The notes under the pieces are model-generated. The model was not told where the DNA came from. It made no database searches and saw only the letters and a list, made by a program, of their open reading frames with translations. The translations under genes and the position numbers were made by a program. From Escherichia coli 042 (GTDB lineage: Bacteria > Pseudomonadota > Gammaproteobacteria > Enterobacterales > Enterobacteriaceae), in assembly GCF_000027125.1 (NCBI RefSeq), contig NC_017626.1: DNA of 64,000 bases, one strand, 5' to 3'. Shown here piece after piece: positions 60,916-64,000 of this stretch (the first letter of the stretch is position 1; every line of letters starts with the position of its first letter).

Positions 60916-60943
60916 TTTTCATAAATCTGTCATAAATCTGACG
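60916..60943 (+). promoter_or_regulatory. Pho box of the phoBR promoter
   Basis: ttttcataaatctgtcataaatctgacg, tandem CTGTCATA-type repeats upstream of phoB. Confidence 0.9.
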
Positions 60944-61743: not shown

Positions 61744-63039
61744 GTGCTGGAACGGCTGTCGTGGAAAAGGCTGGTGCTGGAGCTGCTACTTTGCTGCCTC
61801 CCGGCTTTCATCCTGGGTGTATTTTTTGGTTACCTGCCCTGGTTTTTGCTGGCATCGGTAACAGGACTGCTTATCTGGCATTTCTGGAATTTATTGCGCC
61901 TTTCATGGTGGCTGTGGGTGGATCGCAGTATGACCCCGCCACCGGGGCGTGGTAGCTGGGAACCGCTGCTATACGGATTACACCAGATGCAGCTGCGAAA
62001 TAAAAAACGCCGCCGCGAACTGGGCAATCTGATTAAACGCTTTCGTAGCGGCGCGGAGTCGCTGCCCGACGCGGTGGTGCTGACCACGGAAGAGGGCGGT
62101 ATTTTCTGGTGTAACGGTCTGGCGCAACAAATTCTTGGTTTGCGCTGGCCGGAAGATAACGGGCAGAACATCCTTAACCTGCTGCGTTATCCGGAGTTTA
62201 CGCAATATCTGAAAACGCGTGATTTTTCTCGCCCGCTCAATCTGGTGCTCAACACCGGGCGGCATCTGGAAATTCGCGTCATGCCTTATACCCACAAACA
62301 GTTGCTGATGGTGGCGCGTGATGTGACGCAAATGCATCAACTGGAAGGGGCGCGGCGTAACTTTTTTGCCAACGTGAGCCATGAGTTACGTACGCCATTG
62401 ACCGTGTTACAGGGTTACCTGGAGATGATGGATGAGCAACCGCTGGAAGGCGCGGTACGTGAAAAAGCGTTGCACACCATGCGCGAGCAGACCCAGCGGA
62501 TGGAAGGGCTGGTGAAGCAATTGCTGACGCTGTCGAAAATAGAAGCCGCACCGACGCATTTGCTCAATGAAAAGGTTGATGTGCCAATGATGCTGCGCGT
62601 TGTTGAGCGCGAGGCTCAGACTCTGAGTCAGAAAAAACAGACATTTACCTTTGAGATAGATAACGGCCTCAAGGTGTCTGGCAACGAAGATCAGCTACGC
62701 AGTGCGATTTCGAACCTGGTCTATAACGCCGTGAATCATACGCCGGAAGGCACGCATATCACCGTACGCTGGCAGCGAGTGCCGCACGGTGCCGAATTTA
62801 GCGTTGAAGATAACGGACCGGGCATTGCACCAGAGCATATTCCGCGCCTGACCGAGCGTTTTTATCGCGTTGATAAAGCGCGTTCCCGGCAAACCGGCGG
62901 TAGCGGATTAGGGTTAGCGATCGTGAAACATGCGGTGAATCATCACGAAAGTCGCCTGAATATTGAGAGTACAGTAGGAAAAGGAACACGTTTCAGTTTT
63001 GTTATCCCGGAACGTTTAATTGCCAAAAACAGCGATTAA
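61744..63039 (+). CDS. phoR: Phosphate regulon sensor histidine kinase
   Basis: 431 aa; N-terminal TM helices, H-box SHELRTPLT, HATPase G-boxes. Confidence 0.95.
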
Positions 63040-63066
63040 TCCGCCTTTGTCATCTTTTATTGCCAT

Positions 63067-63094
63067 AAGCCAGCCGATGCTGGCTTATTTTCTT
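63067..63094 (+). terminator. Candidate rho-independent terminator after phoR
   Basis: aagccagc cgat gctggctt followed by attttcttt. Confidence 0.7.
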
Positions 63095-63445
63095 TGCAGT
63101 CAAAATACGGGCGTTAGATTTTACAACGGTTGGCGATTTTTTGTTCGCATGATTAGCCATGTCTTTTTCACGGAAATAGTGTTTTATACTAGTTGGCGAT
63201 TTCTTATCGCTATATACCTCTGGTTTTTAGATCCCTCCTTGCTTTAAAACGTTATAAGCGTTTAAATTGCGCTTCAGGTGCTGTCATACTGACTGCATTA
63301 ACGCGGTAAATCGAAAAACTATTCTTCGCCGCGCCTGGTTGGGAGTATTTCCCGCTAAAATTGTTTAAATATACCGCTGTATCATCCCCAGGGATTGGCA
63401 CAAAAATTTAACGTTACAACACCACATCCACAGGCAGTATGATTT

Positions 63446-64000
63446 ATGACCCATCAATTAAGATCGCGCGATATCATCGCTCTGGGCTTTATGACATTTG
63501 CGTTGTTCGTCGGCGCAGGTAACATTATTTTCCCTCCAATGGTCGGCTTACAGGCAGGCGAACACGTCTGGACTGCGGCATTCGGCTTCCTCATTACTGC
63601 CGTTGGCCTGCCGGTATTAACGGTAGTGGCGCTGGCAAAAGTTGGCGGCGGTGTTGACAGCCTCAGCACGCCAATCGGTAAAGTCGCTGGCGTGCTGCTG
63701 GCAACGGTTTGTTACCTGGCGGTGGGGCCGCTTTTCGCTACGCCGCGTACAGCTACCGTTTCTTTTGAAGTGGGCATTGCGCCGCTGACGGGTGATTCCG
63801 CACTGCCGCTGTTTATCTACAGCCTGGTCTATTTCGCTATCGTTATTCTGGTTTCGCTCTATCCGGGCAAGCTGCTGGATACCGTGGGCAACTTCCTTGC
63901 GCCGCTGAAAATTATCGCGCTGGTCATCCTGTCTGTTGCCGCGATTGTCTGGCCGGCGGGTTCTATCAGCACGGCGACTGAGGCTTATCAAAACGCTGCG
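63446..64000 (+). CDS. brnQ: Branched-chain amino acid transporter BrnQ, N-terminal part (3' end lies outside the window)
   Basis: Own translation from the ATG at 63446: [34 protein letters not shown]..., open to the window end. Confidence 0.88.

Follow-up and report, generated by a model that had tools for sequence, protein, structure and literature searches.

The direct repeat that lies between phoR and brnQ in Escherichia coli is best explained, in our reading (probability about 0.6), as a by-product of an evenly spaced Lrp-type array upstream of the brnQ promoter and not as a pair of operators. Control of this region by Lrp, which a preliminary description of the sequence had guessed, is supported, and we infer, indirectly, both the bases that Lrp contacts and the sign of its effect. 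A low-resolution link between Lrp and brnQ is already in print; what is added here, the architecture at the level of the sites, is new but ordinary.

To explain the arrangement, we propose that Lrp oligomers would bind cooperatively to three 15-bp Lrp-like sites, at -124, -92 and -61, and would bend the DNA ahead of the brnQ -35 element or wrap it, over some 90 bp, so that array-bound Lrp could modulate the sigma-70 promoter. The identical cores of the repeat would be spacers of ~16 bp, fixed in length, directly upstream of sites 1 and 3. In the linker formed by copy 2, length would be kept and sequence not, leaving the bases to drift between genera. The likeness of the cores in Escherichia would then be a lineage-specific coincidence, or the outcome of local homogenisation in weakly constrained DNA.

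This result has little significance beyond annotation. It illustrates that a conspicuous repeat in a promoter region can be unconstrained filler between real but degenerate sites, and that motif-level conservation across species tells the filler from the sites.

The repeat and its surroundings

The window (64,000 nucleotides of E. coli 042, contig NC_017626.1) ends on its right in the sbcD-phoB-phoR-brnQ region. Gene content and order agree with the annotation of the K-12 record, and the 406-bp phoR-brnQ spacer aligns with K-12 base for base. The features that frame the repeat are:

61744..63039, plus strand: phoR coding sequence (431-codon open reading frame)
63065..63095, plus strand: phoR intrinsic terminator (10-bp stem, 4-nt loop, then a T-run)
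63119..63148, plus strand: direct repeat copy 1 (core GTTGGCGATTT at 63129-63139; -157 to -128 from the brnQ transcription start site, TSS)
63182..63210, plus strand: direct repeat copy 2 (core at 63192-63202; -94 to -66 from the brnQ TSS)
63239..63276, plus strand: brnQ promoter (-35 TTGCTT at 63239-63244; 17-bp spacer; -10 TTAAAT at 63262-63267; hexamers read by eye)
63276..63445, plus strand: brnQ 5' UTR (about 170 nt; strongly conserved)
63446..64000, plus strand: brnQ coding sequence (ATG at 63446; 5' part, running off the window)

The imperfect repeat reported in the preliminary description is present, with small corrections to its coordinates. The two copies quoted there, ggttggcgattttttgttcgc (63128-63148) and agttggcgatttcttatcgc (63191-63210), sit near the places given, and their start-to-start distance, described as roughly 64 bp, measures 63 bp. 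Both contain the exact 11-mer GTTGGCGATTT, at 63129 and 63192. Repeat finding extends the pair to the left (63119-63142 and 63182-63205, with 19 of 24 ungapped positions matching), and on the 3' side of the core copy 2 has one base fewer than copy 1 (TTTTTTGTTCGC vs TTTCTTATCGC).

Both copies lie upstream not only of brnQ, as had been noticed, but also of its promoter. According to Kim et al. 2012 (PMC3415461, supplementary file 2), brnQ has one mapped TSS, supported by 54 reads and followed by a 5' UTR of 170 nt; its position in the older K-12 numbering is 418645, and the upstream sequence printed there is TTTAGATCCC...TTGCGCTTCA. This start is an A at window position 63276. A scan with the sigma-70 consensus gave no match at its thresholds, and the promoter is placed from the published TSS.

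How unusual is such a pair? The score observed was reached by 7 of 500 dinucleotide shuffles of the 406-bp spacer alone. Over the whole window, exact 11-mer pairs no more than 100 bp apart are expected at a mean of 1.68 per block-shuffled 64-kb sequence, and the real window holds them at 7 loci, not counting the REP array. Thus, the pair is locally unusual for its spacer, yet unremarkable for a 64-kb scan. The array left out of that count, at 1415-1860, is built of tandem units of ~94 bp that carry GC-rich, REP-like palindromes, and it looks like a BIME/REP array.

Elsewhere in the window the core 11-mer recurs only with 1 mismatch, and the 92-nt segment that spans the repeat is found in exactly one place in each E. 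coli genome, which excludes a dispersed repeat of the REP/BIME or MITE kind. A structured RNA was also rejected: an Rfam covariance-model search of 62900-63600 at E <= 10 returned nothing meaningful.

Three Lrp-like sites in phase with the repeat

Lrp oligomers bind cooperatively and wrap DNA at sites about three helical turns (~30-33 bp) apart. We scored the Lrp SELEX consensus, YAGHAWATTWTDCTR, at every position of orthologous spacers from 37 non-redundant Enterobacteriaceae genomes, in which the background stands at 8.4 +/- 1.3 mismatches. The consensus fits best at three positions, which begin at 63145, 63177 and 63208 with gaps of 32 and 31 bp. The first of them falls within a conserved block, which we call block A:

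63131..63171, no strand: conserved block A (TGnTGnTTTTTTGTTCGCATGATTAGCCATG..TTTTTC; 80-90% majority identity in 81 genomes; a DNA-level element)
63145..63159, match on the minus strand: Lrp-like site 1, TCGCATGATTAGCCA, within block A, centre -124 (4 mismatches; mean 4.5 over 37 genomes)
63177..63191: Lrp-like site 2, TAGTGTTTTATACTA, centre -92 (2 mismatches; mean 4.1 over 37 genomes)
63208..63222: Lrp-like site 3, CGCTATATACCTCTG, centre -61 (5 mismatches, counted by hand; mean 3.05 over 37 genomes)

When the columns of the motif were permuted, 10 of 2000 permuted motifs equalled the fit, 7 equalled the phasing and none did both; the related genomes in this comparison, as in the conservation comparison below, are non-independent samples. 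Taken alone, the E. coli sites are mediocre matches (4, 2 and 5 mismatches), near the frequency expected by chance in a single sequence. Site 3, weak in E. coli, is the best-fitting position when the genera are taken together, with at most 3 mismatches in 26 of the 37 genomes. At sites 2 and 3 the interior turns over from genus to genus, but the YRG...CTR flanks are kept and so is the AT-rich centre. Judged from aligned sequences, this turnover between kept flanks is the pattern expected from selection on a degenerate protein-binding motif.

The repeat is threaded through this array. Site 2, the spacer's one 2-mismatch match to the consensus, lies between the copies and overlaps the left flank of copy 2, TTTTATACTA, which is the right half of the site. 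The core of copy 2 is the 16-bp linker that separates sites 2 and 3. The 3' end of copy 1 (a T-run and TCGC) continues into block A and site 1. Each core stops 5 nt before its site, site 1 for the first copy and site 3 for the second; thus, the 63-bp spacing of the repeat amounts to two site periods (32 + 31). The cores themselves are poor candidates for Lrp binding: no core-only window of either copy comes within 4 mismatches of the consensus, and the positions that conserve the motif across genera adjoin the cores and are not inside them.

Published evidence of Lrp binding

Genomic SELEX is an in vitro method with a resolution of only roughly 100 bp. With W3110 DNA, it yielded 314 Lrp-binding sites (Shimada et al. 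2015, PMC5320599), among them a peak at W3110 position 418534, in the phoR>brnQ spacer, which was assigned to brnQ-proY (PMC5320599). Since brnQ starts at 418815 in W3110, the peak corresponds to window position ~63165, about -111, between the copies and in the middle of the array.

The suggestion that the two copies are Lrp sites therefore survives in part. Lrp binds the spacer in SELEX and a phased motif is present; on the other hand, the cores are off-consensus, copy 2 is poorly conserved and the motif stands beside the cores. The preliminary description knew of no described operator in this region. We found no footprinted one either, nor mutational data upstream of brnQ, in the literature searched; binding of Lrp, however, had already been published at low resolution. 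The same literature yielded no report of Lrp- or leucine-dependent expression of brnQ in E. coli. The text of an Lrp ChIP-seq preprint does not mention brnQ, and the gene is missing from the supplements of another Lrp paper.

All three sites stop short of the -35 element on its upstream side, the nearest being centred at -61. For this reason Lrp at brnQ is more likely to act as an activator whose effect leucine would relieve, as reported for yhjE; it could also repress.

Conservation across the Enterobacteriaceae

We fetched 80 brnQ loci, one genome per species across the Enterobacteriaceae, and aligned their spacers. In the resulting profile of 81 sequences, conservation is mostly strong between 63131 and the brnQ ATG, and the least conserved stretch is copy 2 itself (63191-63211, 30-60% majority identity). 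Its core is not conserved beyond Escherichia and some Citrobacter. Copy 1 fares better: its TG (63131-63132) and the T-run that begins at 63137 are kept at no less than 80-90%, the other core positions stand at 30-60%, and the core is partly preserved family-wide as CTGnTG.

The likeness of the two copies is restricted too. Self-similarity of the spacer at offsets 62 and 63 reaches a z of about 3 in E. coli, extending weakly past the cores. It is confined to Escherichia, where E. albertii shows it weakly; Citrobacter, Enterobacter, Klebsiella, Pluralibacter, Buttiauxella and Cedecea lack it. The check suggested at the outset, conservation of both copies in related genomes, has thus turned out against a conserved pair: no stretch of the spacer is less conserved than copy 2, and the similarity at offset 63 belongs to Escherichia.

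Length tells a different story from sequence. The segment 63105-63275 is exactly 171 nt long, without indels, in 74 of the 80 genomes and in many genera. Across these genera the copy 2 linker is fixed in length and free in sequence. That a constant length is kept despite this freedom shows that spacing is under constraint.

Variation within E. coli and alternative explanations

The repeat is species-wide in E. coli and not peculiar to strain 042. The common haplotype carries GGTTGGTGATTT in both copies, and its 92-nt segment is found exactly in 3330 of 5423 genomes. The haplotype of the window, which has C in both copies and is shared by 140 of about 5,420 E. coli genomes, differs from it by T>C at 63134, G>A at 63191 and T>C at 63197. 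Both T>C changes fall on the homologous position of the two copies, in one clade. The same changes also occur in a single copy, in 5 genomes (63134) and in 2 genomes (63197), so that the double change is explicable as two independent mutations at free sites. Essentially all sampled E. coli keep the 12-mer identity of the cores. Polymorphisms cluster in and around the cores and spare the inside of all three Lrp-like sites; the sole polymorphism at a site edge (63191, G/A) falls on an R in the Lrp consensus.

Part of this pattern counts against the array as we describe it. A model in which the cores are pure linkers predicts neither the near-universal 12-mer identity in E. coli nor the paired T>C. 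Other readings were weighed as well.

Pure coincidence is the strongest of these, although we consider it rather improbable: two weakly constrained, T-rich stretches would share an 11-12-mer that has nothing to do with any protein-binding array. Chance alone would supply about 1.7 such pairs in 64 kb, the spacer-level test was matched by 7 of 500 shuffles only, and the cores differ between species. The objection comes from position, because the cores keep an exact phase with sites 1 and 3, 5 nt before each (63 = 32 + 31), and the flanks of the repeat overlap Lrp-like sites. Coincidence differs from the array solely in denying this register any meaning.

It is unlikely that a single regulator, whether Lrp or some other, uses the two GTTGGCGATTT-containing copies as its paired operators on one helical face. 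A distance of 63 bp does make six helical turns, and the copies are upstream of the promoter. The 12-mer identity in the common haplotype, the clade of 140 genomes in which both copies carry T>C at matching positions and the partial conservation of the copy 1 core as CTGnTG could all be read as signs of a maintained pair. Yet the pair dissolves outside the genus: the copy 2 core is unconserved beyond Escherichia and some Citrobacter, and the similarity at offsets 62/63 is missing in the six other genera listed above. Within E. coli, polymorphisms gather in and around the supposed operators, and the single-copy T>C variants permit two independent mutations. The cores also fail to match the Lrp consensus.

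Alternatively, the 12-nt cores may be functional in their own right in Escherichia, as sites for a second factor or as linkers whose shape tunes the wrapping of DNA by Lrp. We regard this as very doubtful; if it were so, the paired T>C in one clade would reflect selection that keeps the copies alike.

An Escherichia-lineage remnant of a ~63-bp tandem duplication, or gene conversion between the copies, would suit the self-similarity at 62 and 63 that reaches weakly beyond the cores and the clade with the same base change in both copies, but is highly improbable, because the 171-nt length shared by 74 of 80 genomes rules out a recent duplication (Escherichia has gained no 63 bp and shows no extra length over outgroups), orthologous blocks line up in every column, 12 bp of identity make an unlikely substrate for conversion, and variants changed in a single copy are known.

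Other conserved elements of the spacer

Two elements look more promising for follow-up than the repeat, block A and a palindrome in the promoter:

63243..63266, no strand: imperfect palindrome TTTAAAACGTTATAAGCGTTTAAA, across the -35/-10 spacer, invariant in Escherichia and Citrobacter

Judged by their sequences, both look like sites for factors other than Lrp. The palindrome lies in a promoter block (63212-63273) that is nearly invariant in the Enterobacteriaceae alignment, and could possibly be an operator for a dimeric repressor. Block A (TTTTTTGTTCGCATGATTAGCCATG...) is non-coding on both strands and is conserved far more strictly than a degenerate Lrp site needs, which suggests that another factor may own site 1. 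Small open reading frames in block A (MANHANKK... on the minus strand, MISHVFF... on the plus strand) were rejected as coding, since their length and start codon vary. Comparison by hand with the motifs for CRP, sigma-54, sigma-32, IHF, Fur, NtrC and the mar-box gave no convincing match.

Downstream of the TSS, a conserved hairpin at 63302-63333 in the 5' UTR shows 82% pairing and a clean CG<->UA compensatory pair (14 UA, 7 CG). The folding energy of the whole UTR is unremarkable (z = -0.66), RNAalifold found no consensus fold in a 27-sequence alignment of the 5' UTR, and a structure specified by hand received moderate support only. The 12 nt at the 5' end of the mRNA (63284-63295) are 92% complementary in E. 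coli to the Shine-Dalgarno/start region (63431-63442), a complementarity that, in a hand comparison, one Enterobacter sequence did not share.

Just before the brnQ start codon, a CA-rich stretch, CAACACCACATCCACAGGCAGTA, and the Shine-Dalgarno sequence (63417-63440) are invariant. brnQ is on the GcvB target list and has been verified as a target in Salmonella, and the CA-rich stretch fits a candidate GcvB target of the R1 type. GcvB control concerns the same gene as the repeat region; its target is the mRNA close to the ribosome-binding site, some 230 nt downstream of the repeat, with which it has no connection.

At 63397-63412, TGGCAC-N5-TTTAA combines a perfect sigma-54 -24 element with a poor -12 and is not conserved in Citrobacter. 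A genomic SELEX peak for RpoN+NtrC has been published nearby, at about window position 63463. The sigma-54-like element, far downstream of the repeat, was rejected as having no relation to it.

Comparison with known systems

The window itself offers a repeat of another kind. Just upstream of phoB (ATG 60997), TCATAAATCTG is repeated at 60919 and 60930 with an 11-bp period (60919-60940), and we take these repeats to be the Pho boxes of the phoB promoter. Pho boxes, which are direct-repeat operators of a response regulator, are conserved as recognition sequences. Like them, the brnQ repeat consists of two direct 11-mer copies upstream of a promoter; unlike these adjacent boxes with their 11-bp period, the brnQ cores are separated by 63 bp and show no conservation as a pair.

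Other branched-chain amino acid importers of E. coli (livJ, livKHMGF, yhjE) are under Lrp, with the same physiological logic as we propose for brnQ. The activity of the yhjE promoter is strictly Lrp-dependent and repressed by leucine (PMC12708883). livJ and livK are Lrp-controlled and leucine-responsive, and the spacers adjacent to them appear in the same Lrp SELEX list as that of brnQ (PMC5320599). Unlike for these importers, the evidence for brnQ in the literature found concerns binding only.

Phased Lrp arrays are known from ilvIH, where several sites precede the promoter, and from the pap and fim regions. The brnQ sites depart from these in that they fit the consensus poorly in E. coli and are known here from sequence plus a SELEX peak. 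Like them, the brnQ spacer carries degenerate 15-bp Lrp-like sites with YAG...CTR flanks and AT-rich centres, the candidate sites are 31-32 bp apart and upstream of the sigma-70 promoter of an amino-acid-related gene, and in vitro binding of Lrp has been reported for the region. What sets the brnQ array apart from usual Lrp sites is that one of its members sits inside a much more strictly conserved block.
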